Shown here in pieces: positions 3,901 through 60,558 of a DNA stretch of 60,558 bases. This DNA comes from Macrostomum lignano (taxonomy: Eukaryota). The position numbers and the translations under genes are program-made. The notes beneath the pieces are model-generated. The model saw only the letters and a program-made list of their open reading frames with translations, had not been told where the DNA came from and ran no database searches. Position 1 is the first letter of the stretch. Each line of letters begins with the position of its first letter. The stretch spans positions 1 through 60,558 of the forward strand of contig NIVC01004106.1 in the NCBI GenBank assembly GCA_002269645.1. The letters run 5' to 3'.

Positions 3901-5598
3901 ACACGTAGCACTGTTTCAAATGTGATACTTTTGTTATGTTTTCATTGAAAAAGTCTTGCCTCATCTTTTTGAACTGGTCTGTGAACGGATTGCGAAGGCA
4001 CTTTGGCAGATTAGGATCTCCGATTTCATCTTCAACAATTGGAGCATCTTGAGCGCTCTCTTCTGAAGTGCTGCTCTGCGGAACATTTTCTTTAGCTGGC
4101 TGCTGCTCCATTGTAGGCCGCTTTCTGGGTGACGAACGGATCGCTTCATCAGGCTTCTCCTGAGTAGCACGTGTCTTTCGTGGTGATGAATACGTAGAAG
4201 TAGCTGGAATATTATCAGACTGACGTTTATCTTGCTGCTCCTGCTGCAAAGGTGCCGTCTTCCTAGGCGACGATCGAACGGGTTCGCAGATATGATTTTC
4301 TGCGTTTGTCAATCTCTGTTTCCGTGGTAAAGAATTTGCATAGTTGACCACTTGCTGCTGGTTTTTCAAACGCTCGCTGCGACGAGTAGGAGCACTTGGT
4401 ACAACGTCGCTCTTCTTTTCTCGACCTCTTCCTTTTTCCAAATGGCAAGAAACGCTTGAAACCGCCGAAACTGAGTCGCCACAACCGATGCAACTGCAAC
4501 ATGGTGCTCTCCGAGTGCGACTGCTTCTTCTCAATAAGCTCTGACCAGATACACTAGAGGCTGCAACAGACACAGACTCTAATGTGTTTGCTTTAGCGCT
4601 CAGTCGACTACTCCGACGCGTAGCGCAACTTGCCTTCCCAACATCCTTTTTACGCCGACTGCGCCGCGGAACATTTGATGGCACGGACTCTGACACACGA
4701 TCACTTTTAACTGACTCTGACACATGCTCAATTTCAACTGACTCTGCGCTATCCTCCGCGTCAAGATCGACATTCCAATTCCAGACAGAGTTGTTCCGAT
4801 CCCGAAGCACTTCATATGAATTCGGATGCGCAAACAAACTCGTATTATTTTCCAAGGACTTTGCTTGATTTCTACAACGTCCCTTCCAATGCCTACTTTG
4901 AACTCGGGTCCAGTCTGCAACCTTTTCAAAAGGCGTCATTGGTGGAGCTGGAGGTGGCATCATTACAACAGGATCTTCGACAACATGAACATTCTCGTTG
5001 AGAGGGGGCATTTCCACATTCTTGGCGCTCAAATCTCCTTGGCCAGTCGGCCGAACTGAGCTTGCTTCATTAACTTCCAAATCATTGACACGAACGATTT
5101 CGTAGTGTTGACTACCAGGATTAAACAACAATCGAATAGTAGCCAAACGTTCTCCAATATTCGGTCGGGAATAATGGCCAGGCCGCGCTAGATTAAGCAT
5201 GTTTGACTGATAAATAAACACTTCTAGCCGCAACAGTTCACCAATTAGTTCTGGAACTCCGCATGGCACGTACATACGGGGACGCCTTGTATCGTCGCGC
5301 ACTTTTTCCCAATTCAGTCCTGTTTGCATAATTCTTTCCTGATTATTGACATCGCGATGCACCCATTGCTCGAATTCTGCAGCAACCGCATCTCGAAAAT
5401 CTTCTACGCTTAGCGATTGATAGGCGGAAAAACCTGGCAGTTCTTGTAATTGTCTCAATATGGCCGTGAAAAAACAGTTGCCGTCACCTCGTACATTCTC
5501 AACGCGACACGAAGAAAAAGGAACCCATACAGGTTGGACTTGTACAGCAGCAGTTACATGACCTTCGGCAAAATCCATTGCAGTAGCACCTGTTTCAT
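940..5598 (-). CDS. RepHel main exon: OTU-like protease, basic low-complexity linker, CxxC..CxxC plus DUF6570-like region, HUH-Y2 Rep, start of helicase
   Basis: OTU: VRGDGNCFF...QHYEIV. Linker/Zn region: CYVC..CDRC, LQDLSVAEQMLISPV, RVRRDKVTNAMRYL. Helitron N region: AYPHLFPDG. Rep motif 1 FFVTLSAAD, motif 2 EYQSRGSPHVHG, motif 3 YLIKYATK, then DYSAQEA. Confidence 0.92.
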
Positions 5599-5783
5599 CT
5601 GTAAAAGAATACAACTCTTAAACAGTGAGGTATGATAATTTTAAGGAATTGAGCATTAATTGTATTTTGCACAAGTCGTAAACACTAAAATCTAATTTTC
5701 AATATTCGCAAGCAAAGTCAGATGTAAGAAAGAAAATTAACTTGTACTATGCATAGAAATTCAATAAAAAATAAAACTCTCAC

Positions 5784-40290: not shown

Positions 40291-40662
40291 ACATAGAAAC
40301 GATGCAAGATTATAATCTTGATATCATTTAAATGATTAATCATTTATCATGTAAATGTTCGCAGTGTAGACTGCACTTTTTTGTAAAAAAATTTACGTCG
40401 CAAAATGTTTTTGGTTCTGGAACACGCATTGAAAAATTAAAAGTCAATCTATCTAGTTAATCATCTATCTAATGGATCTATCTGATTTTATTCATGTAAT
40501 TTCCTATTAAATTTTTTAGCTATGTTCGTATATCGTTTACGATCGAGCTTCGTGTGTAATGAAAAAAACCGAAATATATTTCTCAAAAGTTATCCTGTAA
40601 ATTACAGCAAATTAACTGCACTAGCCAAACGAGTCAGCTCTACCCGAGCCAGCATTTTGAAT

Positions 40663-41714
40663 CAAGGACTTCTAGACTAACAGGACGTAAAACTCAAAGA
40701 TCGTGCAATTTTTTGGAGGCCACGATTTCCTGGAAAAAATACACTGCAAAGATAGGAAAAAATCAGTTTTTCGTCACAAAATCTGTGATTGTATTTGATC
40801 TGGGGCAGTGAAGACTACCATTCTTTTAATTTAACATGCACAATATGTTACTCTATTATATTTTCATATAGCTGTGTAGTGAAGTTTTCATTTTCATATT
40901 GTTTTCACTTTATTTCATAAGCCCAAAGTTGCAAACTCACAAGTGGCATTAGCCAAATATCAAATTCAAGAAAAGAAAAGCTATTCAAATTTGTAATATA
41001 ATAATATTTTTAGCCTTTAAAATAAAAATTATAAAAGGACTAATCAATGTTTTTTTCTTATAGATACCTAGTAAAAATGGTTAGGGCCTATTTTTGTGAT
41101 TAAGTCTATTCTTCTTAAATCTTAGTCCTAAATATAGGCTTGGCTTAAAAACTGATAATACAGCTTTCTCAAGCCTAGGTAACCAACCATATGAAACTAT
41201 TTATTGGTAATCTATATATAATAAAAAAATCTAAATATACTAATCTCTAAGTCATTGTCTAAATTGAATTACTTATTAGGCTAGATAGTGTAGTGATAGG
41301 TCTAGTTCTAGTAGGCCTAGGAATTAGTATAGTTACTAAACCTACAATAATAGCTTAAGACTAAGAGTACCTACATGCAATGTTTTTATACTTTATTTTA
41401 AAAAGAACAACACAAAAAGTTTGGCTAATGCCACTTGTGAGTTTGCAACTTTGGGCTTATGAAATAAAGTGAAAACAATATGAAAATGAAAACTTCACTA
41501 CACAGCTATAAGAAAATATAATAGAGTAACATATTGTGCATGTTAAATTAAAATAATGGTAGTCTTCACTGCCCCAGATCAAATACAATCACAGATTTTG
41601 TGACGAAAAACTGATTTTTTCCTATCTTTGCAGTGTATTTTTTCCAGGAAATCGTGGCCTCCAAAAAATTGCACGATCTTTGAGTTTTACGTCCTGTTAG
41701 TCTAGAAGTCCTTG
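40663..41714. mobile_element. Foldback MITE with ~295-bp TIRs, probably P superfamily
   Basis: Arms ~40663-40957 and ~41421-41714 are near-perfect inverted copies; termini CAAGG...CCTTG; 8-bp TSD ttttgaat at 40655-40662 and 41715-41722. Confidence 0.85.
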
Positions 41715-42281
41715 TTTTGAATATCTGAAAAAGAAGGTAGTGTTTGTTTTTCAGCTAGATTTCGTTACAGATAAATCAAAAATATTGTTTTTTTAACTGA
41801 TTAGTGTAGATTTATGTAATTTTATATCCAAAATATAGTGTTTGTAATATAGTGTGGTTGCTGTGAATTAGTAGACGTTTTTTTATCGTTTGTTAAAACT
41901 CGACAAATTCAAATATACGAAACTGTAAGACGTATATACGAGCTCGTAGAACCTCGCTCGAATCGAATACATTCGATCTCCAAGGTTCGGTTCGGCAATA
42001 CTCCCAGAGTCCCAATATGCGTGTTTCAGAGATTTGATACTTTACAAATCATTTTATATTTGTGACTATCATGATTACTTATGTATGTAATTAGTTAAAA
42101 AATTAAGTTGTTCACACTGGACTCATAACACAAAGGACTGGAAACTAGACTGATACTCTAGATTCTAGGCATACTTTGTGCATTGTATTCCTAAGTTAAA
42201 TGTTGTATGTCTAATTCCTTTTGAACTTTATTGTTAGGGAACAAGGGTAGATTGTGCTTTGTATGCTTTGTATATTCTGTA

Positions 42282-44001: not shown

Positions 44002-45272
44002 GAGAAAGAAGAGAGGACAAAGGAGAGATGATAGAGTAAAGGGAAGAGGAGGAGAGAAAAAAGAGATGAGATTGTAGAGATGAGGGAGATGAAAGGAAAG
44101 ATGAGAGAGTAGAGATGAAGGAAGAGAGAGCAGAGTGCAGAGAGACGAGAGAAGAGAATAGAGGGGTGAGAGTATAGAAGAGGGAAGAGAAGAGAGGAGT
44201 AAGGAAAGAGAGGAGTCAGAAGAGGAGAAAGAGAAGAGTACACAGTAGAGAGGAGAGTAGAGCTGACAGAAGAGAGAGGGATATGAGAGAGCAAAGATGA
44301 GAGTGAACAGACGATATAAGAGAGGAGAGAGGAGAGTGGAGAGAGAAGAGAGAAGACAAGAGAGGGAGAGAGTATAGAAGAGAGAAGAGAAGAGACGAGA
44401 AGAAAGAAGAAAGGAAAGAGAGTCCTGAGTCAAAAAAGGGGAAAGAGAGGAGTACAAGAAGAGAGAGGTGAGAGAACATATGAGAGTAAAGATGACAGAT
44501 GAGAGAGGGGAGATGAGAGAGCAGAAACCAGAGTGAATAGACGAGAGATGGGAGAGTAGAGAGAAGAGAGGAGAGATAAGAAATAAGAGATGAGATGTGG
44601 GGACAAGGGAGAGATGAGAAGTGAGTGAGGAGAGAGGAGGGGAAGGGAGAGAATTGAGAGGACAGGGGAAATTGGTGAAAAGGACGAGAGAGGAGAGGAA
44701 AGAGAGGAGAGATTAGAGAGAAGAGAGATAGGACAGGAGAGAGCAGAGAGAAGAGAGGAGAGAGAGAAGAGAGAAATGAGAAAAGATAAGAGAGAGAGAG
44801 AGAAGATAAAAGAAGAGAAATGAGATATAAGAGAGCGAAGACGAGAGAGAAGGGAGGTGAGAGAAAAGAATAGAGGGGAGAGGGAAGAGACGAGAGAAGA
44901 GGGGAGAGAGGAGAGAGGACAGAGAAGAGAAGAAAGAAGAGATAAGAGGAGAAAAAGAGGAGACGAGAGACGTGAGAGAAGATAGGAAACAGAAAAGAAG
45001 ATGGAAGTTTTAAAGGATGCAAAGTACATAGGGAGAGGCAGAGGCAGAGGCCAGAGTTTGCCTGACATTCTGCGCAGCACCCCAGCCAACAATATCAATG
45101 TTTGTTTCAAATCCTAATTTTACACGAATCTATACTCTATTTTATGTTTAACTCCATCCTAACTATTAACAAGTTTTTGTTTGAGTTTGACCTCAGATTT
45201 TAGATTACATGCAAAAATAATTCTGGGGAATGGAGTTCCCCGGGTTCAAAATCCGCGGGTTTCAACAGCTTG
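42282..45272 (+). mobile_element. Non-autonomous Helitron family B, copy 2 (~3.0 kb)
   Basis: A|TCTATCTCTAACTATAAAAATC start; same body as 26580-29485; same CTTG|T end; no TSD. Confidence 0.88.
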
Positions 45273-45276
45273 TCAG

Positions 45277-47718
45277 TTAATAAAAAGCAGCTTGATAGTG
45301 ATAGCAGTGACAATGAGTATGTGTCTGCAGGTGATATACTTAGTGAACCTACTAATTCAAGTAGTAATGGCTTGGCTCATACCAATGAAGACTTACAATT
45401 AGATTCAGTGAAGCTGCCTGCTGGGTCTGATGGCACAGACGACATTGAAAGTGAGACCTATTCAGATGATGACCCAGTGTCTGATCTAGATGCTGACAGT
45501 AACAGCGTTGACGAGGAGTACGAGTCTGCTGAAGAAGCAGATAATGAACCCACTCAGACGTCTACAGATTCGTTTGTTGATGGCTCATCTGTTTGTGACA
45601 ATTTAAACTGCGATTCACCAAAACTGCATGCTGGATCTGATGTTCCGCTAAAAGATGCAGTTATCATTTTAGAACGCTTTGCTATGGAGGCAAATTTGAC
45701 TAGAGAAAAAAGCGAAGCCTTGCTTAATATGTTGCACTATTTTATTCCAGGCTGCCGGCTTCCATGCACGTTGTATAAATTAGATGACTGTTTAAAAGAG
45801 CAGGCGTCTGTGATGGGCAGCACCGTGTGCCACATTGTGTGCAACAGCTGTGGACACACTTGCGTGGGTCGAGCTCAACCAAATAACTCGAGCTGTACAA
45901 ACTGCAACAAAAAAAACATTGGGAACTTTTGGATGTTCGATATTCGAGCGCAGCTTCGCTCTATGATTGAGTCTAGTAGACTGCTAGAGTCGGTGAAATT
46001 TCAACAAGATCTCATTAAGGAAACTAGTCCAGAAGTTCTGCACCTAGTTAACAGCGTACTTTATCGCGAGTTTCTTCAAACTGTACCAGTTGAAAGTAAA
46101 GATGATCTTACCTACACTTTGTGTAGCGACGGGTTTCCTGTATTTAGTACTGCACATGTCGAGGTGTGCCCTGTCTATTTATCTATTAACGAATTGGCAG
46201 ATGGTGTAAAGCACAAGTATGTTGTCCTGTGTGGTGTTTGGGCCGGTCGTGTCAAGGTAAATTCCGCTGGATTTCTGCCAGTCGTTGTCAAGGAATTAAA
46301 TGGCTTAGTGGACCCCGGTGTTGAGTACACTGATCATGGTGGTAGCTCTAGGATATTGCGTCTGCACCCATTACTAGCAATGTTCGACGCTCCAGCAAGA
46401 GCAGATGCACTGTGCTTTAAAAGATTCAACGCCGTTTTTGGCTGTGATAAGTGTCTCATTCAAACGATCCCCCAAACTCGTGGCGGAATTCAGACTGGCG
46501 GCCGACTCTATCCGCTCAACATAAAAAAGTCGACTATTTCGCAAGCCAGGTTGGAGGGGTGCGATCATCCTGAGGCCAGATGTGTTCCAGATACAGAAAA
46601 GCTGGCCGCTAAGCAAGTCGATAGGCATGGCCATGATGTCGTCTTTAAAACTAACTCAGACCTTCTTGGGGTCAAAGGGCCATCTCCGCTTCGTTCGCTG
46701 ACTGGCCTTGACTATATCCGCGGCACTCCGCCATGTTATCTACATCAATTCCTCAGTGGTGTAGTTCGCTGGCTACTTCTGCAACTGTTCTTGTTGCGGG
46801 GGCAGAAACCTGAACCCAGTGGCCGAAACCCAGACTTGCACAAACGACGCGACGCCATTGACAAGCATGTCATTGAGATTCGAGTTCCACATTGTGCTCA
46901 GCGACGACCACCAATAACGTTAAAGGAACTCAAGAATTTCCGTGGATATGAACTAGAAATGTGGCTTCTAATTTATGGACCAATGGTACTGGAATCATTT
47001 TTGCCTGGTGATTATTGGCACAACTTTGCAATGCTTTTAAGCGCAGCTTTCTGGCTCACATTTAACCGTACACCAATGACGGAACTTGAGGCCGTACATC
47101 GTACCCTGCGACACTTCCACTCTGCACTTCCAACATTGTACTCGCAGCGTGCGTTAACTTACAATGTGCATCAAGTCTGCCGACATGTCGTTGCACATGC
47201 TGGACCCATACACGCACAGTCGTCCGCTTTGTTCGAAGGGATGCACAGACGCATCGGAAGTCAGATACGAGGCTCGCGCAACATTGACATTCGATGGTGC
47301 TTTTAGATGGATGTCCGCTTTTCTACCGGCTGGCTTTAAAATTGAGGTTTACCAGCCAAACATGCGACATCGCCGAGTATTGTCGTGCTTCCTCGGACTT
47401 GTCGGGACCTCACCGACAAACTTTCACTTTGGCCGGCTGCAGTATCTGTACACAACGACTGACAACCGAGTCATGGCTAGTGTACAACTCTTGTCTGTCC
47501 ATCCGCCTCAGTTCGATCACCTGCCGGCACTGGTGGGTGTGTTATCAGACTCTCAAAGCCGAGGATGTGCGTACAGTCACGTGAGAAAGCTCAATTGCGA
47601 CCCCTTCGGCGATTTAGACGTCGTGAGTAACGTGCCTATTGCGGACATTGTTGGATGCTGTGCCATCAGTGGGGATTGCGTTGCATTAATGCCACATGCG
47701 CAGCATGGTACCGCTTAA
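45277..47718 (+). pseudogene. EnSpm/CACTA (CMC)-type DDE transposase exon, frameshifted near 47290
   Basis: Acidic N-terminus; CNSC..CTNC; LCSDGFPVF; VYLSINEL; FDAPARA..FNAVFGCDKC; HQFLSGV; TYNVHQ; SSALFEG; C-terminal FHFGRLQYLY in the next frame. Confidence 0.82.
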
Positions 47719-48490
47719 GCACTAGAACGTTTCAACTAACTATAATTTAGTGCACATCTAACCAGATTAAGAAGTTTTATTAAAGTCATAAAGTAGAAAA
47801 AAAAGAAAGACCAGGGGGACGCAGCACATTCCCTTGCCGTATCATCACCAACGCCTGGATCTGCGTTGCCCAGCCTGGGTGTGAACGTTCTAGCCCCCGG
47901 GAGGGCACATTCATCTCAAGAAGACAATCTATTTGGCTTTATCAGGCCCTTTTGTCTTTGTCCTTGAAATTATGTAATATTGTAATGAATGCACACGAAT
48001 GCTTTTATATTTAATCAATAATAGATACTCGTAAAATTAACCAAATTCTGATTACGAGCTTGTATGCAATAAGTAACGAACCCCTAACCTTAATGTTGCT
48101 ATGCTACAGTTTATTGCTACCAATGACACGGCTTCAATTTTCCTCATGTTAAACACGTGCTTTAGCAATATAAGTAACCTAAATTTTCTGGCAGCTACAG
48201 TACGTCATGGTCTCGAACTGTGTATGTGGTGAAATAGGTGAATAGGTTAGAAATTGAGGATCCAGGATTCTACGATCTACGATAAATGCTACCTATTCTA
48301 AACATGTGCTCAACTTTTTCAGTACAGCAATTTTTAGAAATGTTTTATAGTTAGAATGGCGAATGCTTTTGTAACTATTTTTGTATGTTGCTGGTATATG
48401 ACTATGCTATAGTAGTAGTAGGGCGAATTATGATACTGCCGCACTAGCACTGGCGAGATAGGCGGCAATGCAAATGTATAGGGAAAAATA

Positions 48491-48894
48491 CACTGCGGAG
48501 ATATGAGCCCTATCTCTGTGCATTGGGGACGGCTAAGCACTGCAGAGATATGAGCTCTATCTCTGTGCATTGGGGACGGCTAAGCACTGCAGAGATATGA
48601 GCTCTATCTCTGTGCATTGGGGACGGCTAAGCACTGCAGAGATATGAGCTCTATCTCTGTGCATTGGGGACGGCTAAGCACTGCAGAGATATGAGCTCTA
48701 TCTCTGTACATTGGGGACGGCTAAGCACTGCAGAGATATGAGCTCTATCTCTGTGCATTGGGGACGGCTAAGCACTGCAGAGATATGAGCTCTATCTCTG
48801 TGCATTGGGGACGGCTAAGCACTGCAGAGATATGAGCTCTATCTCTGTGCATTGGGGACGGCTAAGCACTGCAGAGATATGAGCTCTATCTCTG
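48491..48894 (+). repeat. 47-bp tandem repeat in the Polinton terminal region (~8.6 units)
   Basis: gcactgcagagatatgagctctatctctgtgcattggggacggctaa; internal cagagata/tatctctg stem. Confidence 0.95.
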
Positions 48895-49116: not shown

Positions 49117-49177
49117 CCAATCACAGAGCCCGGAGTGGGATGAGTGGTTTGGGGTGGTTCGGTCGAGGGTATATAAG
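49117..49177 (+). promoter_or_regulatory. CCAAT box plus TATA box (GTATATAAG) upstream of the PC4-like gene
   Basis: ccaat at 49117; gtatataag at 49169; ATG at 49282. Confidence 0.6.
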
Positions 49178-49281: not shown

Positions 49282-50055
49282 ATGGACATCTGTGAAGGCT
49301 ATAAGGCACAAGTCCAGGAGTTTGAAGGACAAAAATTTATCGCTATTCGCAAGTTTTACCGACACGGCAGCACGGCAAGTCTGAAGCCAGGCGTCCCAGG
49401 ATTCAACCTGAATGTTCACCAATGGAAGAAATTGAAGGAGGTGAAACGCTCACTTGTGATTTCTGCACGCAACAACGAGCCCAAGGTCGTGAAACTCGGC
49501 TTCGATAAGTTTGTGGAAGTCAAAGGCGGCATCATTTGGCTCAAACGGCTGCCGGAAGATTGCTGCGAGGAGTTTTTGAGACGAAACGCCGTACCACTGA
49601 CTCCGCCGCTGTGGCAGAAGCTCTGGAAAATCGCCTCCTGGATCGACGGTCAGCTGGTGGCTCCCTTGAGGAACTCAATGCAGTACGAGCTGGAGTCTGA
49701 TGAGGAAGAGGAGGAAGAGGACAAGAAGCTCAAGTTGGAGGCTGACCAGGACACGAAGCCCATAATGGAGACTGATGAGGGCGGAGAGCATGCTGATGAC
49801 GAGGACGTTAGCTCGCCCACAAGGTCGCGCATTGTGACTGAGCCTATCACATCCACACCGATACCTTTGGTTGATTCTGATGCTGGACTGCTTCCGCAGC
49901 GGGACACCAACCTTGAGGAAGATCCGGTGTGGTATCAGTTCAGGGCGCATGCAGCGGCTTCGACGGTGAGCAGCAGCAGCAGAAAGCGAAAGCTGCCATT
50001 TCAACTTCGTCGGCAGGACGCGATGAGGCTGCCCAATGTTCGCTTTGATAACTGA
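49282..50055 (+). CDS. PC4/Sub1-like ssDNA-binding protein, probably two PC4 repeats, with an acidic tail
   Basis: YKAQVQEFEGQKFIAIRKFY..LKPGVPGFNLNVHQWKKLKE parallels the PC4 core (RYVSVRDFKGK..IDIREYW..KPGRKGISLNPEQWSQLKE); weaker second copy LGFDKFVEV..VPLTPPLWQKL. Confidence 0.75.
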   Translation: MDICEGYKAQVQEFEGQKFIAIRKFYRHGSTASLKPGVPGFNLNVHQWKKLKEVKRSLVISARNNEPKVVKLGFDKFVEVKGGIIWLKRLPEDCCEEFLRRNAVPLTPPLWQKLWKIASWIDGQLVAPLRNSMQYELESDEEEEEEDKKLKLEADQDTKPIMETDEGGEHADDEDVSSPTRSRIVTEPITSTPIPLVDSDAGLLPQRDTNLEEDPVWYQFRAHAAASTVSSSSRKRKLPFQLRRQDAMRLPNVRFDN

Positions 50056-50381
50056 ACAGCTAGAATGCTTTGAATGCATTGGACTAACTAAATTACTTTT
50101 AGCTTGCACATGATTATCCAGCCTATATCTGACGGCACTATGCTGTTTTTTATCTCTGCTATTTCTGAAATGCTGGTGTGCGAGTGTTTTAGTGTTCGTT
50201 TTTATGGATTGTTTGCTTTCGGAAAATACACCGACTGTTACGATGTTAGAGGTTTCAATCTGACAGTAATAAATTAATTTGCCACTCGTTTCTCTATCAT
50301 TTAATTGGAATATAAATTTCTACTTAAGAAAAAATACTGTACAGCTAGAGCAGGTGGATAGGCACGTATCTTGATAAACCC

Positions 50382-51452
50382 ATGATGGAGAAAATTTATT
50401 TGAAACCTGAGCAACCGGCTAGTTTTTCTTGTGCCTCAAAGTTGCTGCATGAAGTGAGGCAAAGAGGTGATCGAATATCTGCAAAGAGCATTGAGCAGTG
50501 GCTCAGCGAGCAGCAAGTGCACACTCTGCACAAGCCAGCTAGGAGGCGATATCCAAGGGCCCCAATCATAGTGCGCGCAATCGATGATCAGTGGGAACTT
50601 GACTTAGTGGAAATGATTCCATTCGCAAAGCATAATAAAGGCTACAAATATATTCTCACATGCATTGACGTGCTCTCAAAATGTGCTTGGGCCAAGGCAC
50701 TGAAAAATAAATCTGCTGCAGAAGTGAAGTCAGCATTCGAGAGCATACTGAGAAGTTCAAAGCGACAGCCACGCACAGTTCGCACAGATCAGGGGAAGGA
50801 ATTTATCAACTCCACTTTCCGTCAATACTGCATTGACAGAGGGATTCTGGCTTTCCCAACTAACAGCGAGCAGAAGGCGGCTGTCATTGAGCGATGGAAT
50901 CGAACTCTGAAAAGTAGAATGTGGCGCTACTTCACCTACAAGAGCACACTGCACTGGCTTGATGTGCTGCCTAAGCTGGTAAAATCCTACAACAATACCT
51001 ACCACAGAAGCATCAAAATGGCACCCACTAGTGTCTGCAAAGAGAATGAATCTGAAGTGTGGATGAACCTGTACGATGGAAAAGCAGTCGAGACTCTAGA
51101 AAAATTAAAGGAGCCTAAGTTCGCTGAAAACCAGTCAGTGAGAATTTCCAATGCTCCACGGATATTCAAAAAGGGATACAAAGCGAGCTGGAGTGAGGAA
51201 GTGTACACCGTGGTGAGCAGAGCCCCAAAACATTATCCCTACATGTACAAGATTAAAGACATGCGGGGGCAAGAGATTCGAGGACTCTTCCATGAGCACG
51301 AGCTGCAGGCTGTCCCGGACTCACAGCGGCTGTATGTGATTGAGAAGATCCTGAAAACGGAGAAGCGGAAGGGAAAAATTCGCTATCTGGTGAAATGGGC
51401 GGGCTACGACTCGACTGGCTGGGTGGATGAAAAAGACTTAAGAAAGGTTTAG
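50382..51452 (+). CDS. Retroviral-like (rve) DDE integrase with C-terminal chromodomain
   Basis: WELDLVEM, CIDVLSK, RTDQGKEF, IERWNRTLK; chromodomain YVIEKIL..YLVKWAGY..WV. Confidence 0.95.
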   Translation: MMEKIYLKPEQPASFSCASKLLHEVRQRGDRISAKSIEQWLSEQQVHTLHKPARRRYPRAPIIVRAIDDQWELDLVEMIPFAKHNKGYKYILTCIDVLSKCAWAKALKNKSAAEVKSAFESILRSSKRQPRTVRTDQGKEFINSTFRQYCIDRGILAFPTNSEQKAAVIERWNRTLKSRMWRYFTYKSTLHWLDVLPKLVKSYNNTYHRSIKMAPTSVCKENESEVWMNLYDGKAVETLEKLKEPKFAENQSVRISNAPRIFKKGYKASWSEEVYTVVSRAPKHYPYMYKIKDMRGQEIRGLFHEHELQAVPDSQRLYVIEKILKTEKRKGKIRYLVKWAGYDSTGWVDEKDLRKV

Positions 51453-51489: not shown

Positions 51490-52299
51490 ATGCGAACTAT
51501 TTTGATTAACAGTGAGCATGCTGAAGGTACTCCTTGTGACTTTAATTTTTACCTGCCTTCACCTATTTACTTGGATCGAAATGTGGACTATGAGGCAGGT
51601 CTGGCTGAAATCCATCTGCCTGCTGCATGGTTCAATGTTGACGAGCCTTACTGCTTCACTGTCTCAGATGGAAGAGAGCATGAGGCCCTGGTTCTTCAAC
51701 CCGGACGCTTTGCTAGAGTGGAGGAGCTGGTGGAGCGCCTGAATGAGCTGCTGGCCAACTCTGATTCGCTGTTCTTTGATGCAATGAGTGACAGGGAGTC
51801 TGAGATGGAGGCTGATGAGTCCGGCCTGATGGGGCGTAGTGGCAACAGGGAATTCGGTATGAAGTTCGAAATCCACAACTCACGAACTGTGGTGCACAAC
51901 AACACTGCGAGAGCAGAGCTGTTTCTTCCATCTAGTAAAATTCTGCATTGGCTGGGATTTGGAAACCAGGCTGTGAAAATCCAGCCAGGGAGCCGCGTGT
52001 CCGAGCATTGCACTGGCTGCCCGCGCACCAGCTTAATCAATGTGCACTGCAGTATCGTTGAGTCAACTAATTGCAACTGGAGCTCCTTGTTGAGAACAGT
52101 TGGAATGAAAGCCGGCATTGAATGGGGCAACTATCAAACAAAAATATTTAAGAAAACAATATTCTTCCCGATTCAACGAATCAGTCTTCTTCACAGCATT
52201 CGAGTTCAGCTCCGTGACATCTATGGTTGCCCACTGATTGCACAGACTCACAGCCCTGTTCTGCTTACAGTTCAAATTCAGGAGAAACGCATTCAATGA
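51490..52299 (+). CDS. Minor capsid protein (penton)
   Basis: FNFYLPSPIYL..YEAGLAEIHLPAAWFNV; LINVHCSIVES; SIRVQLRDIYG; typical Polinton mCP pattern. Confidence 0.82.
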   Translation: MRTILINSEHAEGTPCDFNFYLPSPIYLDRNVDYEAGLAEIHLPAAWFNVDEPYCFTVSDGREHEALVLQPGRFARVEELVERLNELLANSDSLFFDAMSDRESEMEADESGLMGRSGNREFGMKFEIHNSRTVVHNNTARAELFLPSSKILHWLGFGNQAVKIQPGSRVSEHCTGCPRTSLINVHCSIVESTNCNWSSLLRTVGMKAGIEWGNYQTKIFKKTIFFPIQRISLLHSIRVQLRDIYGCPLIAQTHSPVLLTVQIQEKRIQ

Positions 52300-52673
52300 A
52301 CTACCAGCAGCTAATCCAGCAATATTCGGGGGTGAGGACAGGACACGAAAAGCCTGCACTCTATGGCTGTGGGAGCTTCCCAGGGATCATGACATACCAG
52401 CCTCCGCCAGCGGCTATATCATCATCATCAGCCTCGACGCTTAGCAACGTCAGGCGCAAAAGAAATACTGAAGCAAGTCCGAAACGATTGAAGAAAAAGA
52501 AGGGCACCCGAAAGGCAACTGGTGGAAATCGCAGTAAGAGGTCGAGCAAGGCTAGTGGGAAAAAGCTTAAGAATAGGAAGACGAAAGCAAAGAAGAATAG
52601 AGCAGGCGGAGGAAAGCGAAAGCAAAAAGTCAGCAAGAAAACTGTGAAACGCGTGCTCGACTCTCTGTCATAG
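52296..52673 (+). CDS. Small basic pVII-like core/DNA-binding protein
   Basis: ATG 52296 overlaps the penton stop; LYGCG motif then a K/R-rich C-terminal half; lies between penton and hexon. Confidence 0.65.
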   Translation: MNYQQLIQQYSGVRTGHEKPALYGCGSFPGIMTYQPPPAAISSSSASTLSNVRRKRNTEASPKRLKKKKGTRKATGGNRSKRSSKASGKKLKNRKTKAKKNRAGGGKRKQKVSKKTVKRVLDSLS

Positions 52674-52675
52674 AC

Positions 52676-53958
52676 ATGGCTTACGGATTCAATCCCAGAC
52701 TTGATTTATTTAAGACGCCCGTTCTACAAACCTGCATTGAAAAAGCTACTTATGTTGATATTCACCCAGTTAATTCCATTGTTGCAAACTCTCCCATTGA
52801 ATTTGACTGCCACCAATCTGCCGATGAATACACAGATCTGCTGAATTCTTTTCTTTATATTCGCTGCCGCCTTGTGAGACTGGATGGGGGTTTGCTGAGG
52901 GAGGATGTTCGAGATGGAGATGGCATCATCACCGAGCGCAGAGACAGTGACGTGCACCCAGAAAATTTTGTTCTGTCTACAGCCTTCTCAGATGTAATTG
53001 TGAGCATTAACCAGCGAGTGGTGTCTGGTGGAGACCAGCTCTATCCCTACCATGCGTACTTCAAAGCACTAATGAGCTCATCCGATGCCCAGCAACTAAA
53101 ACTTTACCCTGCTGGCTTCCTGGAGCCGAACTCGGCAGCTGAAGAGCACACGGAGAGCCACAGGGAATCCCAATGGATGGAGTATGCGGGGCCGCTCTTC
53201 AGCGATGTTTTCCAGTGCCCAGTGTTTCTGCTAAGCAATCTGCACCTGCACATCAAACTGGTCCCCAGCGATGGGGCCTTTGCCATCAGAACCCCGAATG
53301 CAAACAACGCGGCATACCGAATGGAAATCTCTCACAGCATTCTGCATCTTCGCCGAGTCAAAGTGATGCCCCACATCAGCCTGGCCCATGAGCAGGGGCT
53401 GACAAACCAAAATGCACTGTATCCCATCGAGCGAACTGAAATGCAGAACTTCATCCTACCCCAGGGTATTCAGTCAAAAAACATTGAAGGATTCACTCAT
53501 GGAAAATTGCCGAAGTTTATCATGCTGGCCTTCGTGAGCCACCGAGCATTCAACGGTCATCATCACGCGAGCCCGTTCCAGTTCCAGAGCTTCAACCTTA
53601 GCCGATTGGCTCTAAAGAAAGGTGGGGAAACCGTGTGCCACGGCGCCTTCACACCTGAAAACAATTCCTTTGTAAGAGAATACTTGCACTACCTGAAAAG
53701 CTGTCAATCTGCAAGCCACACAAACTCGGTCCGTGGATCCCCTACCAGCTCTTCTCCAACAACAGCACGGTGTTTGCATTCGATCTCACACCCGAGGGAG
53801 CGGCTCTGTGGTACGGACAGAAGGAGGGCAACCTGCGGCTGGAGATTCGCTTCCAACAGGCTCTGAATGAAGCGGTGTCCCTGATTGCTATGTGCCTGTA
53901 TGACTCGCTGATTGAGGTCACCAAGCACCGAGAGCTTTTGCTGGACTATTCATCTTAA
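52676..53958 (+). CDS. Major capsid protein (double jelly-roll, hexon-like); one frameshift near 53720
   Basis: LDLF..P; PIEF; LYPYHAYF; LYPIERTE; GKLPKFIMLAFVSHRAFNG..PFQF; second frame VFAFDLTP..GNLRLEIRF. Confidence 0.9.
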
Positions 53959-53963
53959 TTGAC

Positions 53964-54476
53964 ATGGATGCAATTCAACTACTTAATCTCGCCAGAAAAT
54001 TTTTGCCTTACCAAAAATTTCTCATAGTTACTTTACATTTGCGCTATAAAAATTCTCTGCCCTTGAATGTAAAAAGAAAATTTAGATCATCAATTTCCTT
54101 TGAAAACAAGTTTGTTTTTGTCCTACTTCAGCACAATGGCTCATTTGGTCACTGGGTGGTGTGCTATGTTGGGCAAGGAAATCGCATTGAGTTGTTCAAC
54201 TCCCTCGGCTGGGAACCTGAAATTTTATCTTTGGTTTATAATTTGTTTCGAGAGATTAAAACAACTGGCTTTTGGCTCCGAAGCAATATAAACAGAGTTC
54301 AATGTGCTAACTCTAATAAATGCGGAGTGTTTTGCATCTATTTTGCTTATCAAAAGTTTCTGTTCAATCGGTCATTTGAGGGGATTTTGAAGCATTTGCA
54401 TGCTAATGAAAAAAATCATTTGAATGATAGAATCTTACAGAGGTTTGAAGCCAACTTAAGAAAAAGATGTCCGTGA
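53964..54476 (+). CDS. Adenain/Ulp1-like maturation cysteine protease
   Basis: GHWV, ELFNSLG, VQ..SNKCGVFC: the H, (D to N), Q, C order of Polinton PRO. Confidence 0.8.
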   Translation: MDAIQLLNLARKFLPYQKFLIVTLHLRYKNSLPLNVKRKFRSSISFENKFVFVLLQHNGSFGHWVVCYVGQGNRIELFNSLGWEPEILSLVYNLFREIKTTGFWLRSNINRVQCANSNKCGVFCIYFAYQKFLFNRSFEGILKHLHANEKNHLNDRILQRFEANLRKRCP

Positions 54477-54499
54477 TTTCTAATATTTATGCATTAAAC

Positions 54500-55144
54500 A
54501 TGGGAGAAAAGCAAGTTTGCTACGATATCCGCCTCAGGCAGGGAAGCTGCATGATTGTCTGCGGGCCCACCAATGCAGGAAAAACAACCTTTGTCAAACA
54601 CCTGATCCAGTACAGAGACGTCATGTTTGATGTGAAGCCTGGCAGAGTTCTGTGGTACTATGGGATCTCACAGGCAGGCCATGCAGAACTGAGCAGCCTA
54701 GGTGTGCAGCTGCGCCAGGGATTTCCCACCAACATCGAGGCAGCACTTAGGCCCAATGACCTGGTTGTTTTCGATGACTTAATAGAGGAAACTTCAAACT
54801 CTGCTTCAATGCGAAATTTTTTCACAGGAATCGCACATCACTTGCCGTGCTTTTTGGTGATGCTGACTCAGAATATATTTTTCAAGGGAAAAGAGTCGCG
54901 AACAATGAGCTTGAATGTAATGTATTTAGCTATCTTGAAAAACCCCAGAGACCAGCTGCAGATTGCAGCACTGGGCAGGCAGTGCTTTACAGAGAAGCCC
55001 GGCTTTCTGCTGTCAGTGTTCAAGCACGTGACCGCGCAGGGCAGGGGAGCTACCTGTTCCTGATTTTCACCATCAACTCCCGATGAGCTGCGAGTGCGGG
55101 CCAGAATTTTACCCAACCAGCGACCCCATCTTGTATTTGCTTAA
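54500..55144 (+). CDS. A32/FtsK-like genome packaging ATPase; three single-base losses at ~55045-55075
   Basis: Walker A GPTNAGKT; Walker B VVFDD; LTQNIF; KNPRD; restored tail YLFLDFHPSTPDELRVR ends at TAA 55142-55144 in the original frame. Confidence 0.92.
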
Positions 55145-55185
55145 GAAAGTGAAGCTTGTTTTTATCAGCTATTGTTTTCATCGCT

Positions 55186-55524
55186 ATGGAAGTGCTTGAT
55201 TCACATGCAAGTCTTTTTGCGGTTCTTGCGTCACCTAAATATACCGTGCGCTTCAAGCGGCTGTTGATAAAAAATTGTCCAAAAGAAGTGCGTTATTTTC
55301 TTGTCGAGGCCTGCCATAATCTCTTACAAAACAATCTATCGTTTTCGCTCGATGAAAAAGCTGTTCTTGCAAAGTCAAAAGAGATAATTCGAAAAATTAC
55401 TCACAAAAGAAGAAAGACAGACTTGTTGAAGGCTGGCTTCATCAAAATACTCCCGATTCTGCTTAAGCTGGTAAAGAAGAAGAAGCAAAATGAACAAATT
55501 TTCAGAAATGGTTCTGATTCCTAA
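55186..55524 (+). CDS. Conserved small basic Polinton protein with an amphipathic C-terminal helix
   Basis: EACHNLLQNNLSFS..L.K.K.IIRKI..KAGFIKILPILL pattern recurrent in Polintons; position after the ATPase. Confidence 0.65.
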   Translation: MEVLDSHASLFAVLASPKYTVRFKRLLIKNCPKEVRYFLVEACHNLLQNNLSFSLDEKAVLAKSKEIIRKITHKRRKTDLLKAGFIKILPILLKLVKKKKQNEQIFRNGSDS

Positions 55525-56110
55525 AGCAGAGTATGAGATGTTGATGCAGAATTTGAAGCCAAATGAGACTACCACTGAAGCTGACTTGAAGCAGGCTCAG
55601 AAGAAATGCGATGACATCTTGTATGCCGAGGATTGTCCAGAAGATGTGAAAACCGCCATGTACCAAAGTGCAATGCAAAGTTTGCTGGCCAAGCGCAAGC
55701 ACGCTGGAAAAGAAGGAGCACGCAATACTGAAGCCAAGTTGATGAAAACAGAGACACCCCAGATAAGCACCTGGGAAGAGAAGATCAGCAAGTCGGTGCC
55801 ACAGAAATTCAAAACCAGGGCTCGCAGTCTGTGGACGATCCTGTCCACCAATCCAGAGCTGATTCGAGTTTGTGAAAACGGGGAGGTGGAAATCGCAGGC
55901 ACGTCAATCCCTTCCTCAAACATACTGGACTTGATTCAGCACACAGTGAGGGATTCGCCATGTGAGCGTGAACCAGTTGGGTGGAACGAGTTCATCGATT
56001 TTCTGCAGCAGAAAAAGCTTAATGTTCCGCTTTCCGCTATTGGTAAATCAGTTAAGAAGAAAATGGCAACCAGCAGAGGGGTGAACTGGAGAAAGAACAG
56101 GAGAGTCTAG
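55490..56110 (+). CDS. Conserved Polinton hypothetical protein
   Basis: MVLIP start; NGEV.I.G..IPSSNILDL..EPVGWNEF..L..NVPLSAIG pattern typical of Polinton core ORFs. Confidence 0.7.
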   Translation: MNKFSEMVLIPKAEYEMLMQNLKPNETTTEADLKQAQKKCDDILYAEDCPEDVKTAMYQSAMQSLLAKRKHAGKEGARNTEAKLMKTETPQISTWEEKISKSVPQKFKTRARSLWTILSTNPELIRVCENGEVEIAGTSIPSSNILDLIQHTVRDSPCEREPVGWNEFIDFLQQKKLNVPLSAIGKSVKKKMATSRGVNWRKNRRV

Positions 56111-56160
56111 TCAAGGGGTACGGGAGCAACACAGCCTGGCTGAAACTGCCTGCCAGAAAA

Positions 56161-56169
56161 GTATATAAG
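56161..56169 (+). promoter_or_regulatory. TATA box (GTATATAAG) upstream of the DEDD-like and TBP-like genes
   Basis: Identical 9-mer to 49169-49177, 50 nt before ATG 56211. Confidence 0.55.
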
Positions 56170-56210
56170 AAGGTGGACTGACTCCGAAATTTTCGAAGGA
56201 AAGCTGCATC

Positions 56211-56690
56211 ATGAACTACATTGACTTCCAAGGATTCCGTGCAACAGCACAAGCAAAAAATTTGTTGTGAAGGAGTTGGCAGTTGTTCAAATCAGAGCGG
56301 GGAGCTACCGCATTGCTCACCATGTGTACGCACCTCCGTATCCATGGGAGAGAGTCTCACCTGACATGCGAGTTTACTACAGACAGCTATCTAAGAGTCT
56401 GCACCAGTTTAAGTGGAATGATGGAACCCGTCCGTACATGGAACTGGCGGAAGACATTCTGAGCATTGCCAGTGGTCCGATCTGGTCAAATGGGGAAAGG
56501 AAGTCGATTTTTCTGACTGAGCTGCTTGGAAGACAGGTTTATAACCTAGAAGATTTGGGAGCACCCTCGACTGAAGATTCAGATACTGGCTGTGCAGTGA
56601 GAAATTCGTTGCTGCACTACAGTTGGCTTAAGCCAAAGTTCTGCATCAACTTAAGAAGCGAGCAGTGTCCGTGGCACACGAGCAGTAAAG
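56211..56690 (+). CDS. DEDD-exonuclease-like Polinton accessory protein; frameshift in an A run near 56258; C-terminal end uncertain
   Basis: MNYIDFQGF..KFVVKELAV..HVYAPPYPW..HQFKWNDG..Y..VYNLEDLG..CAVRN. Confidence 0.6.
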
Positions 56691-56729
56691 TTGGCAGAAG
56701 CAGATTTGGTGAAGAAGTTGACGATCGAA

Positions 56730-57302
56730 ATGAGCCCACCAGCTACAGCCCTAAGAGTGACCAATCTGGTTGGCGGAGTAGATCTGAGACTGGATGGTGG
56801 CAGGGGCGCTCAGCTGCCTCTACGGGAACTGGCTCTCAGCATGGCTCATGTGATCTACCGGCCCGTCTGGCCCCGGGTGCTCATCAAGCGGATGCGGATT
56901 CCCAGAGTGACTCTCCTACTCTACCCTACTGGGCAACTGAGCATCTGCGGTGCCAAGACCCACGCAGACGCCAAAAGGGCTGCCCGTCGCTTCGTGGCTA
57001 TGCTGCATCGGAGAGTGCCGGCTCAACTGCTGCCTCATCAAACAATTTTGTGTTCGAATTAAAACTATTACTGCTCATGGACAGCTCCCAGTTCATTCCG
57101 CACTTTCCTTATTAATGTTAAAATCAATTATCCCAAACGCCGAATATGAACCAGAATCCTTTTCTGCTTTAATTTTCAATTTAAACTTTTGTAAATGTCT
57201 GCTTTTTCACAGCGGCTCTTTGTTCTCAGTGGAGCTCGGTCCTTGAATCAGTTGCATACCGATAGCATGCGTCTACTCAATGTAGTTCTTTCCATTGAAT
57301 AA
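56730..57302 (+). CDS. TATA-binding-protein (TBP)-like protein, both repeats, split by two compensating frameshifts
   Basis: Repeat 1: VTNLVGGVDL..YRPVWPRVLIKRMRIPRVTLLLYPTGQLSICGAKTHADAKRAARRF. Repeat 2: RIKTITAHG..AEYEPESFSALIF..KCLLFHSG..VLSGARS. Stop TAA 57300-57302 overlaps AATAAA. Confidence 0.85.
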
Positions 57303-57874
57303 AAATAAAGTCAAGTCAAGCAATTTGCCGCAAATATTTCAATGATTAGTGAAAAGTGAATAAAAGGATAAACTTGTATTCTTTACATTCATTTTCCCAG
57401 GCAGACAGCTATGGAACACTTCAAAAACGTATTTAGCCATCACCAAAAGTATCGCAAAACGCATATCAAATCCGAAAGTAAACAATACTACCATCGTTAT
57501 AACAAACGATGTGCACCGAGAGAAGAGAAATAGAAAAGTGATAGAGAAAATATGATTAAAACGCTGATTGAATTTACAGGAACAATTTGTGTCAGATAAA
57601 AACCAAAAACACATTTTAAATAGTAACAAAGCAAAAAAAATGAATTAATATTGTATGAGCGCACTTGCCACAGCTTTATAAAAAGTAAAACTTAAATTGA
57701 TATCAATATTTCACGCCGCAAAAACAAATTGACAGCTAAATCTAGCGCAATTAGCCAAGCATACAAATTTGTAAAAGTTACTACATGCAAGTCACTACAT
57801 TTAAAACAGAATTTGGCAATTTAAACAACTCTAAAAGCAAGAAAAAGTACTAAACAGTCTGTTAAACACCCGCA

Positions 57875-60558
57875 CTAGACCAGTCGGATGCGCTTCAGCT
57901 GATCGTGGGATGCGGGCGTCAGCGCATAGTGTCCGTAGGGCAGGCTTCGATTACTGCTAAGCCACACTCGCTTATCCTCCCACACCGATAGGCTTCTTTT
58001 CTCCATGACCGACGTGAAGATTTCGTGTTTCTTGGAAACAATCGCTGTCATGGCAACCATCTGCTCTTGCTTGGACTCGAACGCGTCGACATAGTTCGCA
58101 TGCGAAATTTGCTGTCTTACTACTGACTGCTTACGCCTTTGGCAGTTTTCTTGATCTTTGCACTCGAATTCTCGGCAGGGAGAAACGAATAAAGTTTTGG
58201 ACGCAAAAGAATCCACTCCTGGTAAATTCCACCAGCAGATTCATCTTTAACGCAGCCCAGCTTTCCTTTTAACTCTTCAGAGAAATGCGGATGGTCTCGA
58301 GAATAGTTGGATGTGTCAAGTATTTTTCCTCTCTAAGCTTCGGGATTACCTCCGATGTTAAATCATGATTCTTGAAAGCTAGAAAAAATGAGTCAGTATC
58401 ACCTCCGCAAAGCATCATGTCTCTGGAACCGTCTGAATGACAGAACAGCGGTCGAGCCTGTCATATAGTAGGCTGTACATGGCCATCTTAGAGAGATCGA
58501 GAACTGCCTGGCCAACGAAAATGGCCTTGTCAAGCGTGACTTTATCTTTTTTGAGCTGAAAAATGCTCAACGACTCATTGATAATCGAGAATGCGGCACA
58601 GTTTGGTCGAGAGGTGCAAGTTTCTGCTTGAGTCTGGTTAGTGCAAATTCGAACATCGCATCTTTTTCGAACGTTCTCCATAGTTTTTCCAAAGAGAGAA
58701 TTGTTTTCAATTTGTAAAAATCCTTAGCAAACTCGGAAGTTGCCAAAGCTCTTTTTCATTGTTGCTGGCAATGTACGGCGCGAAAATATTTTCCTGCTTG
58801 AACGAAATCATTTTTTTGACGCACTTGATCCGCATTCCGTGTTGCAGGTAAAATCTTAAAACGGTGCTGTGAACTACGTAAGATCCTTGTCGGTACAGGT
58901 GAGTAGAAGCTTCTCCGTTGCTTGAAACTTAGCTTCAGCATTGCCGTTCGCTGTTCAGCAATCTCTTTCCATAGTTCGGCCATGTACGGCGAGAATTGAT
59001 CTGGCTGTGGTTTTGATTTTTCAGGTGCAAACGGTAACTCCTGAGTCGAATCGTGAATCTCAGCTGGGTATTCTAGATCGAGTTGAACAAGGTAGGCGAT
59101 CTCGGCTTCTGGATTGAGTGACAGAAACCGATTGGAGTCCCAGAACTGGATTTCTGTTCCGGTACCCACCTGAATTCCCTGCATGGAAGCGGAAGCGACA
59201 GGGCAAAGCCATACAAGTTGTTCATATCGATCGGCATGAGGCTTACACTCTCTTGCTGATCATCATAACCTGGCAAGCTAGGATTATTACCTTTGACGCA
59301 ATGCACATTAATGAAGGACATGCCTCCTCGTATTCCTTCTCAAACAGATGATACATGTCAGCATCAGTCAGCTGCTCTAGAACCACTCCAGTCGACTTTA
59401 GAGCTGAGTCGTAAGACAAACCAGGAGTAGTAAAGTAGTGTACCGGATCCAATCCGTCCTCTTTCAGACTGGCCTGTCGGAATGTCTCGAAAATGTCAGC
59501 CAGCTGCCTTACATCCATTTCAAGATAGGCGAGCATATAATCCTTCAAACTTTTGCATTGAAATGCCGCCCATGCCGCTCTTGCTCTATTGTAGTCGTCG
59601 TCGGAAATTCCCCTATCGGAAAGTCGATTAAAAAAGCATCTTTAGGCGGCAAAACCGACTGCTCGAGAATCTCAAATCCTGTGAGGTAATCATATGGGAA
59701 GATCCCTTTTTTTCGAAGTAGCTCTCTTGAAGATGTGGTCTTGACTCAAGCATTTGCATTGTCAGCTTGCATTCAGCTTCGGGAAGATTAGCAAACAAAT
59801 TGGACAAACTTCCTTCAAAAGCAGAGCGAGTCGATGAACTGAATTGTAAACATGATTGGCACAACTTTTCCGTTCTTTACGTAACTTGCAACGGGAATTC
59901 CGCCTTAGTGACAAGTATCGCTCGATGATTGCGGAACAACACTAAGTTTCCAATTTTTCATGCTCCCAAGCGCAGTGGAAAGTAGAAGATGAAGGTCGTA
60001 GCCACCTAAGTTGTGAAAAACCAGGGGCAGAAACCGCGTCGGAGCTGTGCTCGCAGGTTGCATTCTTGACATGCTGCACCTTTGTACTGTCCATTTAAAT
60101 GATCGTGGTCAAAATGTTTATCTGTAGAACTTTTAAAGTTCTTCTTGCAGTAGTGACATACCTCAGCAGAATTGAAATCATCCATGACGGTCGCGGATGA
60201 TCGGTCAGCCGGCTGGTGGCTATGCTTCTGGTTCCAGTGAAATATATCCTGAGCCAGGCTTTCAGAGATTTGAGAAACCAAGGATACACTCATCAGGGTC
60301 CGCATTGCAAAAGACCTTGTACATGTCTCCTTCTGGCCTAAGCGGAGGTCCTGTCATGCCTTCACGAGGCACTGCAAGAAAACTGCTGCACATGGTTCAT
60401 GCTTTGAGATCAGGTTAGCAGGGTCTGTGTTCGCTCGCAAAATGGCTTCCAGGTCGGCATAGGCAACGAATGGTGGACTGACAGTGTTTTGACAGTTTCG
60501 GAACTTATTATTTCATTCTGTCCTGGAACTGGAAGCGTTTCTTTGACAGGATTTTCTG
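57875..60558 (-). pseudogene. Protein-primed DNA polymerase B with an endonuclease-VII-like insert; many frameshifts; N-terminus outside the window
   Basis: CHYC..DHDHLNGQYKGAACQECN; HNL.GYDLH; YLEMDV; motif A DMNNLYG; motif B KLK(N)NSLFGKTMENVRKR; motif C GGDTDSFF; C-terminal EDKR..SLPYGH. Confidence 0.93.

Follow-up and report, generated by a model that had tools for sequence, protein, structure and literature searches.

Cellular TBP (PF00352) adopts a saddle fold built from two repeats, and the pairing of TBP with TFIIB is textbook knowledge. TRF2/TBPL1 is a paralog of TBP in which intercalating residues have changed. The fold is also encoded by viruses. The TBPs of Nucleocytoviricota and mirusviruses are two-lobed, and in the available text of PMC7221094 most viruses that have a TBP encode a TFIIB too, while the TFIIB-contact glutamates of the viral proteins are variable, being about 40% conserved. 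KSHV ORF24, the TBP mimic of the beta- and gammaherpesviruses, has a TBP fold in a virus without its own polymerase, has a more polar DNA face, and serves non-canonical TATA boxes (TATTWAA, in late promoters) before structural genes. ORF24 has a Pol II-binding N-terminal domain and a C-terminal DNA-binding domain and keeps the four Phe; it is without the TFIIB glutamates and requires five other viral proteins (PMC12529657).

Maverick/Polinton/adintovirus elements are recognised by terminal inverted repeats, (AGT)n ends, a 6-bp target site duplication, a protein-primed polymerase (pPolB), and the gene orders int-mcp-pw-Mcp-pro and atp-pm-pz; their core features, as set out in the accessible part of PMC8097293, include neither a promoter box common to several genes nor genes for TBP, PC4-like or DEDD-like proteins. 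A TBP has nevertheless been labelled in the map of a midsize MELD virus (Starrett et al., 2021, PMC8502044, legend to Fig. 5), and likewise in the preprint (bioRxiv 10.1101/697771, legends to Figs 5 and 6). That virus resembles the element described here in having both a TBP-like gene and an adintovirus-like PolB on a midsize linear dsDNA genome; it differs in that the map label stands by itself, the accessible text of PMC8502044 naming no element, family, selection or promoter. A first-pass annotation of the present locus had raised the possible novelty of a TBP in such an element, and the printed label lowers that claim. A search of titles and the starts of abstracts, with subscription papers and Repbase outside its scope, gave no description of a Polinton TBP family or of its promoters. 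What is new here is the comparison of two families, the TBP-less control, and the fit between residues and box.

The window, meaning the whole stretch of DNA analysed, is a contig of 60,558 nucleotides from the flatworm Macrostomum lignano; coordinates refer to it and features lie on the forward strand unless stated. The element that carries the TBP gene is a Maverick/Polinton of approximately 16.7 kb, a size that it shares with described members of the group (PMC8097293), along with the terminal features, the pPolB and, as judged by position and size of the ORFs, both gene orders given above. Its left end (48411..48790) has an (AGT)n terminus and a terminal inverted repeat with 47-bp internal repeats, and its right end lies past the end of the contig. 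A complete copy (C530:476841-493511) is 16.7 kb long with 341-bp inverted arms that are 99.7% identical. A 6-bp target site duplication was found in two of three copies inspected (C530 and C114), the ends of the third (C754) being ambiguous; the window copy has one end only. Three other features were seen in the window: one or more Helitron Rep/PIF1 helicase genes (100-5617, reverse strand); a 298-nt inverted repeat (40660-41717) with 99% complementary arms 462 nt apart, which is possibly a MITE; and a 700-aa ORF directly to the left of the element (45204-47306), with a weak DUF1258 match, which is possibly a transposase-like gene.

The gene order, read from an unbroken relative (C130), is PC4-like, integrase, putative minor capsid, PW-position ORF, putative major capsid, protease, ATPase, PM-position ORF, PZ-position ORF, DEDD-like ORF and TBP, followed by pPolB on the opposite strand. 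In the window these are a PC4-like gene with a transcriptional coactivator p15 domain (49282..50055; PF02229, E 5.7e-08), an rve integrase with a chromodomain (50382..51452; PF00665 and PF00385), a putative minor capsid protein without a family match (51490..52299), a small basic ORF in the PW position (52296..52673), a putative major capsid protein (52676..53958) that is broken here and 427 aa long in an unbroken copy, an adenain-type protease (53964..54476; PF00770, E 1.1e-04), a putative packaging ATPase (54499..55143) with a Walker A motif and weak, sub-threshold AAA-type matches only, a small ORF of 105–112 aa in the PM position (55186..55524), an ORF in the PZ position (55490..56179), and the DEDD-like ORF (56211..57062), which keeps its name from the first-pass annotation and is without a Pfam match. 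The TBP-like gene (56730..57302) comes next, and the protein-primed B-type DNA polymerase with its endonuclease VII insert (57875..60558, reverse strand) converges on it; the window copy of the polymerase is broken and is truncated where the contig ends, and in unbroken copies the polymerase matches PF03175 and PF02945. Pfam thus supplies PF03175 (pPolB), PF00665 (rve integrase) and PF00770 (adenain protease) as Polinton genes. The capsid, PW, PM and PZ ORFs are named by position and size, following the order in PMC8097293 as available, and these ORFs gave no Pfam, PHROG or PDB sequence match. The ESM Atlas returned no usable match for the PM-position ORF, and TBP clusters for the unbroken element TBP (P0001) only. 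A Pfam search of the element ORFs found no RNA polymerase gene. Introns in the pPolB and major capsid genes of the window were considered and dropped, since other copies have single frames. PC4-like genes lie behind a canonical TATA box in both families described below, and also occur in pPolB elements bounded by terminal inverted repeats that have no capsid or TBP match (C173 and C491).

The TBP-like gene has two repeats, is intronless and without an N-terminal extension, and encodes 190 aa in unbroken copies. It starts at 56730 and stops at 57300-57302, in the same frame as the start. Two Pfam TBP matches were obtained in the window (56655-57059, E 2.2e-12; 56941-57243, E 7.2e-07), both above the curated cut-off, and the unbroken protein P0001 matches PF00352 in two stretches with 87 bits (E 7.9e-25). 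The first-pass annotation had proposed that both TBP repeats are present, that the stop lies in the starting frame, and that the gene lacks introns and is flanked by the DEDD-like ORF and the pPolB 3' end; all of this is borne out, the last in the window and in the other copies. It had also placed compensating frame breaks near 57035 (+1) and at 57219-57221 (−1). The second site is correct, and the first break is really in a T run near 57046-57049. Two AATAAA hexamers seen at and directly after the stop (57298..57309) are likely to form the polyadenylation signal.

The frame breaks were compared with other copies. A DNA search of the whole 764-Mb assembly gave 40 scored matches, the window included, of which 38 cover all 686 bases at 98–100% identity; this suggests a recent spread of the element. 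These copy counts are inflated, because the assembly holds even the host TBP on three contigs (G000:C70, C713 and C1301). In all 19 other near-identical copies fetched, from 39 other matches listed, TBP is one unbroken intronless frame of 190 aa. Over 7.7 kb of alignment the window has 32 indel columns that are private to it against all five copies compared, and about 22 substitutions; 30 of the 32 are missing bases, and 29 adjoin runs of two or more. Short-read contigs from four of four runs have the unbroken form at the second break (57219-57221), although such contigs are not assignable to one particular element copy. Because private indels outnumber substitutions and are nearly all missing bases beside runs, and because the read contigs are unbroken, the frame breaks in the window are probably assembly errors, real decay of this copy being the alternative. 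An NCBI protein 99% identical to the element TBP is a hypothetical protein of Macrostomum lignano. In the public gene models P0007, P0008 and P0009 the element TBP is joined to exons of the host or to exons next to it; these models are likely to be annotation artefacts of frameshifted copies.

The structure of the element TBP was predicted with AlphaFold from 90 aligned TBPs, cellular ones included, giving a pLDDT of 95 and a Foldseek TM of 0.82 to TBP structures. This model is partly circular in view of its alignment, and the protein was therefore refolded from four Polinton-type sequences only. The refolded model has a pLDDT of 80, and its best match is TBP (Z 19.4, rmsd 2.5, 179 aligned; VIA); TBP rows span Z 19.4–15.9 and the next, unrelated row has Z 8.2. 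Both the Pfam repeats and the saddle of the predicted models thus agree with a TBP fold.

The element protein is 26% identical to host TBP and 23% to host TRF2, which is a separate locus. It differs from cellular TBP in consisting of the core only, in being carried by a mobile element in many copies, and in its DNA face. Residue numbers here are those of yeast (Table 1 of PMC12529657, as accessible), mapped through host TBP. In families A (that of the window) and B (see below), the changes are F99 to P/L, F116Y, V122S/T, T124C, N159T, V161T and P191S/T/N; N69, V71, L114, F190, F207, E186 and E188 are kept, as in cellular TBP. The changed residues are nearly invariant inside each family and common to both. 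In the element's own numbering the intercalating-Phe positions are P48 (with W47 beside it), Y65, F144 and F159, so that two of the four Phe are kept; N12 is kept (N69), T112 replaces N159 and S145 replaces P191, leaving one of two Asn. The TFIIB-contact glutamates are E140 and E142 in the C-lobe stirrup, and are invariant in both families. Set against a canonical TATA-binding TBP, the protein therefore lacks the full set of four Phe and the N159/P191 pair, and has the TFIIB glutamates. DNA binding by the element TBP is putative, because only two of the four intercalating Phe and one of the two Asn are kept. A change of Phe to Tyr at a universally conserved position affects TATA binding (PMC7221094, in the text available); we infer that this position is F116/F207. 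The window's subfamily keeps four of five basic positions on helix 2, a patch that is not kept in family B. An A100/P191 swap was considered and dropped, as an ungapped alignment places P48 at F99, and the equivalent of V203 was left out of the comparison, being K in one alignment and a gap in the other.

By analogy, the element TBP most likely works like KSHV ORF24. V122 and V161 are changed in both, and both combine a TBP fold with a more polar DNA face in a genome without a viral polymerase, and with non-canonical TATA boxes before structural genes (PMC12529657, accessible text). The Polinton protein differs as a bare 190-aa core with the glutamates kept, and is not a member of the ORF24 family. 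Nucleocytoviricota and mirusvirus TBPs differ from it in mostly having their own TFIIB encoded alongside and in their less conserved glutamates (PMC7221094, as available), no TFIIB having been found in the element. TRF2/TBPL1 has other residues changed and forms a separate branch of the tree.

The tree (65 rows, LG+G4, 179 columns) groups families A and B in a clade (99/95), within a larger clade with short metagenomic TBPs (97/91). The element-TBP clade belongs to the eukaryotic side of the tree, separate from both TRF2 and archaea, and has long branches; the TRF2 rows form their own branch (100/99), and the giant-virus TBP sampled falls outside the Polinton TBP clade. A tree constrained to hold the element proteins with host TBP was rejected (p-AU 0.0028). 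The metagenomic members are a large clade of minimal TBPs of about 170 aa on contigs of up to 18.8 kb (P0031, P0036, P0043, P0096, P0162-P0189 and others), which share N159T with the Polinton proteins. Relatives of the element TBP were found at 70% identity (Logan) and 50% (IMG), and a relative of the family B protein, P0018, at 64% (ENA). A Polinton link for P0003-P0005, P0010, P0018 and the 170-aa and 180-aa clades is suggested by their likeness to families A and B and by the tree. Scans of viral contigs for the context of distant relatives gave no match or two giant-virus TBP loci, and scans of metagenomes gave none or 21 weak matches; none of the seven inspected has Polinton genes.

Among eight unbroken copies, dN/dS in the 5' half of TBP is 0.07–0.25 in 27 of 28 pairs and 0.55 in one, and in the 3' half it is 0.06–0.26 in the 16 of 28 pairs that could be estimated, the other 12 being saturated. 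The element TBP is thus, as judged from its codons, under purifying selection. Values so far below 1, together with 26% identity to host TBP, are not those of a captured pseudogene.

The two halves of the gene have different histories. The 5' halves are near-identical between subfamilies (dS 0.03–0.7) and the 3' halves near-saturated (dS above 1.1), with a breakpoint inside the gene at approximately 57080; loose contig ends lie at 57081-57082. The low dS in the 5' half indicates that subfamilies have probably recombined. TBP codons 1 to ~110 (56730-57062) are also covered by the DEDD-like frame, which is open over them in eight of eight family A copies, as against 1.7% with random synonymous codons; most family B copies are without so long an overlap. 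The overlap was considered as the cause of the conserved TBP 5' half and rejected: selection is on the TBP frame, and in the overlap the DEDD-like frame has pN above pS in five of six pairs.

The gene is present in other copies of the element and beyond. Ten further TBP-bearing loci comprise nine with the same cassette and one decayed piece, with pPolB segments 42–67% identical where present; as these loci were chosen by their TBP, they give no measure of prevalence. A second family, B, was found by its ATPase, which is 42–46% identical to that of family A. In 10 of 10 fetched copies its TBP, 35% identical to the family A protein, comes directly after the DEDD-like gene, the same place as in family A, and the gene order differs elsewhere in the element. 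Among ten stretches of other pPolB families, one has a very divergent TBP-like ORF and nine are without. The one exception, family C, is Polinton-like and also encodes a deoxynucleoside kinase and a dUTPase; its TBP-like ORF (G000:C2285:176242-176856) has an hhalign probability of 85 (E 6e-6), no Pfam match, and 72 matches in the assembly at 24–100% identity. The C506 family is an AT-rich Polinton whose genes include an A32 ATPase and one resembling adenovirus protein X; no TBP was found in the 20 kb fetched. The proposal that the element encodes a complete TBP homolog is therefore supported by fold, by selection, by the copies, in all 19 of which the frame is intact, and by the second family.

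We then consider the DNA upstream of the genes. A box with the consensus Y[A/T]TAAGAA recurs there. It is a variant of TATA in which position 6 is G, position 1 may be C, and position 2 is T in family A and A in family B. The 60.6-kb window has six copies of CTTAAGAA, all in the cassette, on the coding strand and before a gene: before the integrase (50323..50330), the putative minor capsid gene (51437..51444), the putative major capsid gene (52566..52573), the packaging ATPase (54455..54462), the PM-position ORF (55140..55147) and TBP (56650..56657). The last falls within the DEDD-like ORF, 80 nt ahead of the start of TBP, and occurs in nine of nine family A copies. The small basic ORF has TTTAAGAA (52147..52154), and the DEDD-like ORF has a dual box, TATATAAGAA (56162..56171), which reads both as canonical TATA and as TATAAGAA. 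The PC4-like gene is preceded by a canonical TATA box, TATATAAG (49170..49177); end-proximal genes carry ordinary TATA boxes. The protease and PZ-position genes are without a box, and one family A copy has none before the integrase.

Six copies of CTTAAGAA across the whole window is within chance (25 of 100 shuffles), and the weight lies in clustering, strand and placement, not in the total number. In nine family A copies, YTAAGAA occurs 68 times in 14,960 nt of upstream windows, seven times in the other 57 kb of the coding strand and four times on the opposite strand. In six of six copies tested, Y[AT]TAAGAR occurs 6–8 times on the coding strand and not at all on the other, against a shuffle mean of 0.8–1.2, and 0 of 200 shuffles reach the observed number. 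The box precedes seven of ten cassette genes in family A and also in family B, at the same gene positions, compared with 7–10% of random windows. The pattern was chosen on family A, and position 2 was widened after family B; counts across copies are not independent, the copies being related. TAAGAA and ATAAGA are the top de novo 6-mers upstream of genes. By contrast, the box precedes one of 15 genes in the C506 family, without detectable TBP, where CTATAAA is the top upstream 7-mer (five of 15 genes); this control is one TBP-less family with capsid-type genes, whose element may reach past the 20 kb fetched. In family C the box precedes one of ten genes, in a single, rearranged copy. The loose pattern is above shuffle in the host flank too (23 against 13.9), with 14 of these being one word, TTTAAGAG.

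Family B has CATAAGAA or TATAAGAA at the gene positions of family A, and its TBP gene is preceded by a canonical TATAAAAG; box and canonical TATA thus alternate at homologous sites, and this fixes the register of Y[A/T]TAAGAA. The box persists where the DNA upstream of the integrase has diverged, and inside coding DNA it uses the rare Leu codon TTA (16 of 182). It lies about 35 to 150 nt before the ATG, mostly 35–80 nt; relative to the stop of the upstream gene, its position ranges from some 410 nt before to some 270 nt after. No pyrimidine tract was found at the boxes. Three runs guessed to be RNA gave even cover of the whole element, repeats included, and no splice joints; cover of this kind resembles that of the DNA run, which makes them uninformative on expression.

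In the accessible text of PMC1636458, the C-lobe of TBP reads the 5' half of TATA, P191 would exclude any base except T at position 1, and G at position 6 is not selected by wild-type TBP. We infer that positions 1 and 6, at which the box departs from TATA, fit the change at P191 and the altered DNA face.

No Pfam TFIIB was found among the element ORFs. Across the assembly, TFIIB (PF00382) gives 15 matches, spread over seven contigs, and TBP 150 rows; no TFIIB recurs in many copies as the element does. An intron interrupts the TFIIB core of the host. The element thus appears to be without a recognisable TFIIB, a very divergent one being conceivable.

We consider it probable, on this comparison of genes and boxes, that the protein is an altered-specificity TBP, putatively binding Y[A/T]TAAGAA and steering host TFIIB and Pol II to the element promoters. 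Host TBP would start the end-proximal genes from ordinary TATA boxes: the PC4-like gene, the TBP gene of family B and, via the dual box, the DEDD-like/TBP pair of family A. The element TBP would then bind the variant box, recruit host TFIIB and RNA polymerase II, and turn on the box-bearing integrase, putative capsid and packaging genes, and in family A also its own gene. The outcome would be an early-to-late switch with positive feedback. Several observations count against this reading: all four Phe are required in KSHV ORF24 (PMC12529657, as available) and two are present here; family C has a divergent TBP-like ORF yet little sign of the box, in its one rearranged copy; and the spread of box-to-ATG distances, the genes without a box and the excess of the loose pattern in the host flank weigh on the same side.

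Both mechanisms offered by the first-pass annotation, redirection of Pol II and a decoy for host TBP partners, bear on this. Redirection has gained circumstantial support from the shared box and the altered DNA face, and a pure decoy has less. In the latter case host TBP or another host factor would read the box as a weak TATA variant, and the element TBP would compete for, and tie up, TFIIB, TFIIA, TAF1 or Mot1. We regard this as unlikely. E186 and E188 never vary in either family even as several residues of the DNA face are lost, the window's subfamily keeps most of the helix-2 basic positions, and some boxes are near-canonical, so that TATAAGAA could be readable by host TBP; but the helix-2 patch is not a feature of family B, near-invariant changes common to both families fit a new specificity better than a loss, and the box goes together with TBP in families A and B, a pattern absent from the TBP-less family. 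It is highly improbable that the gene is a processed copy, of host TBP or TRF2, that was captured passively and is now decaying. The window copy is indeed broken and the gene intronless, and the host TBP core exon is intronless as well; against this stand the low identity to both host proteins, dN/dS well below 1, rejection of the tree with host TBP, and the intact frame of every other copy fetched.

The remaining alternatives concern the partner and the box. The element TBP may read the box and need an element protein (DEDD-like, PC4-like or PM-position) in place of host TFIIB or in addition to it, which is how factors of herpesviruses and poxviruses work. In both families TBP comes after the DEDD-like gene and a PC4-like gene is present, and TBP-encoding viruses mostly bring a TFIIB (PMC7221094, in the text available); we nevertheless think a required partner very unlikely, given that no element has a TFIIB family match, that the TFIIB-contact glutamates are intact, unlike those of ORF24, and that PC4-like genes occur in elements without TBP too. 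The box, for its part, could be an initiator with the start inside TAAG, a trans-splice acceptor or a 3'-end signal, with TBP having another job such as bending the terminal repeats for replication, excision or packaging. Transcription of baculovirus late genes starts inside TAAG, and trans-splicing occurs in Macrostomum lignano. TAAG is the invariant core of the box, a number of boxes are close to where the upstream gene ends, and in family B TBP is followed by a TAAGAA that has no gene further along the same strand. The box is, however, tied to the next ATG much more closely than to the upstream stop, is without a pyrimidine tract and swaps with canonical TATA at homologous sites, and the element showed no RNA polymerase gene; a role of this kind is quite unlikely.

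Returning to the altered-specificity TBP, we put forward more tentatively a wider picture, of an animal Polinton lineage with its own promoter code, in which a minimal, retuned TBP would read a G-containing TATA variant shunned by host TBP and use host TFIIB and Pol II as a self-amplifying switch from latent to active for the integrase, capsid and packaging genes. If true, no known viral hijack of Pol II would be smaller, with one protein against the six of herpesviruses, and it would be a third route to viral basal transcription, namely an own TBP with host TFIIB and polymerase, beside the TBP–TFIIB pair of giant viruses and the herpesvirus complex. It would also be a natural altered-specificity pair of TBP and promoter, and the many unplaced 170-aa metagenomic TBPs would be a wider family of such proteins. 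The two diverged families suit a swap comparison of TBP and box. TBP and an 8-bp box are a concrete candidate switch for waking integrated Polintons and timing their capsid genes, and with many intact copies in this laboratory flatworm, the element TBP could misdirect host genes that bear the box.
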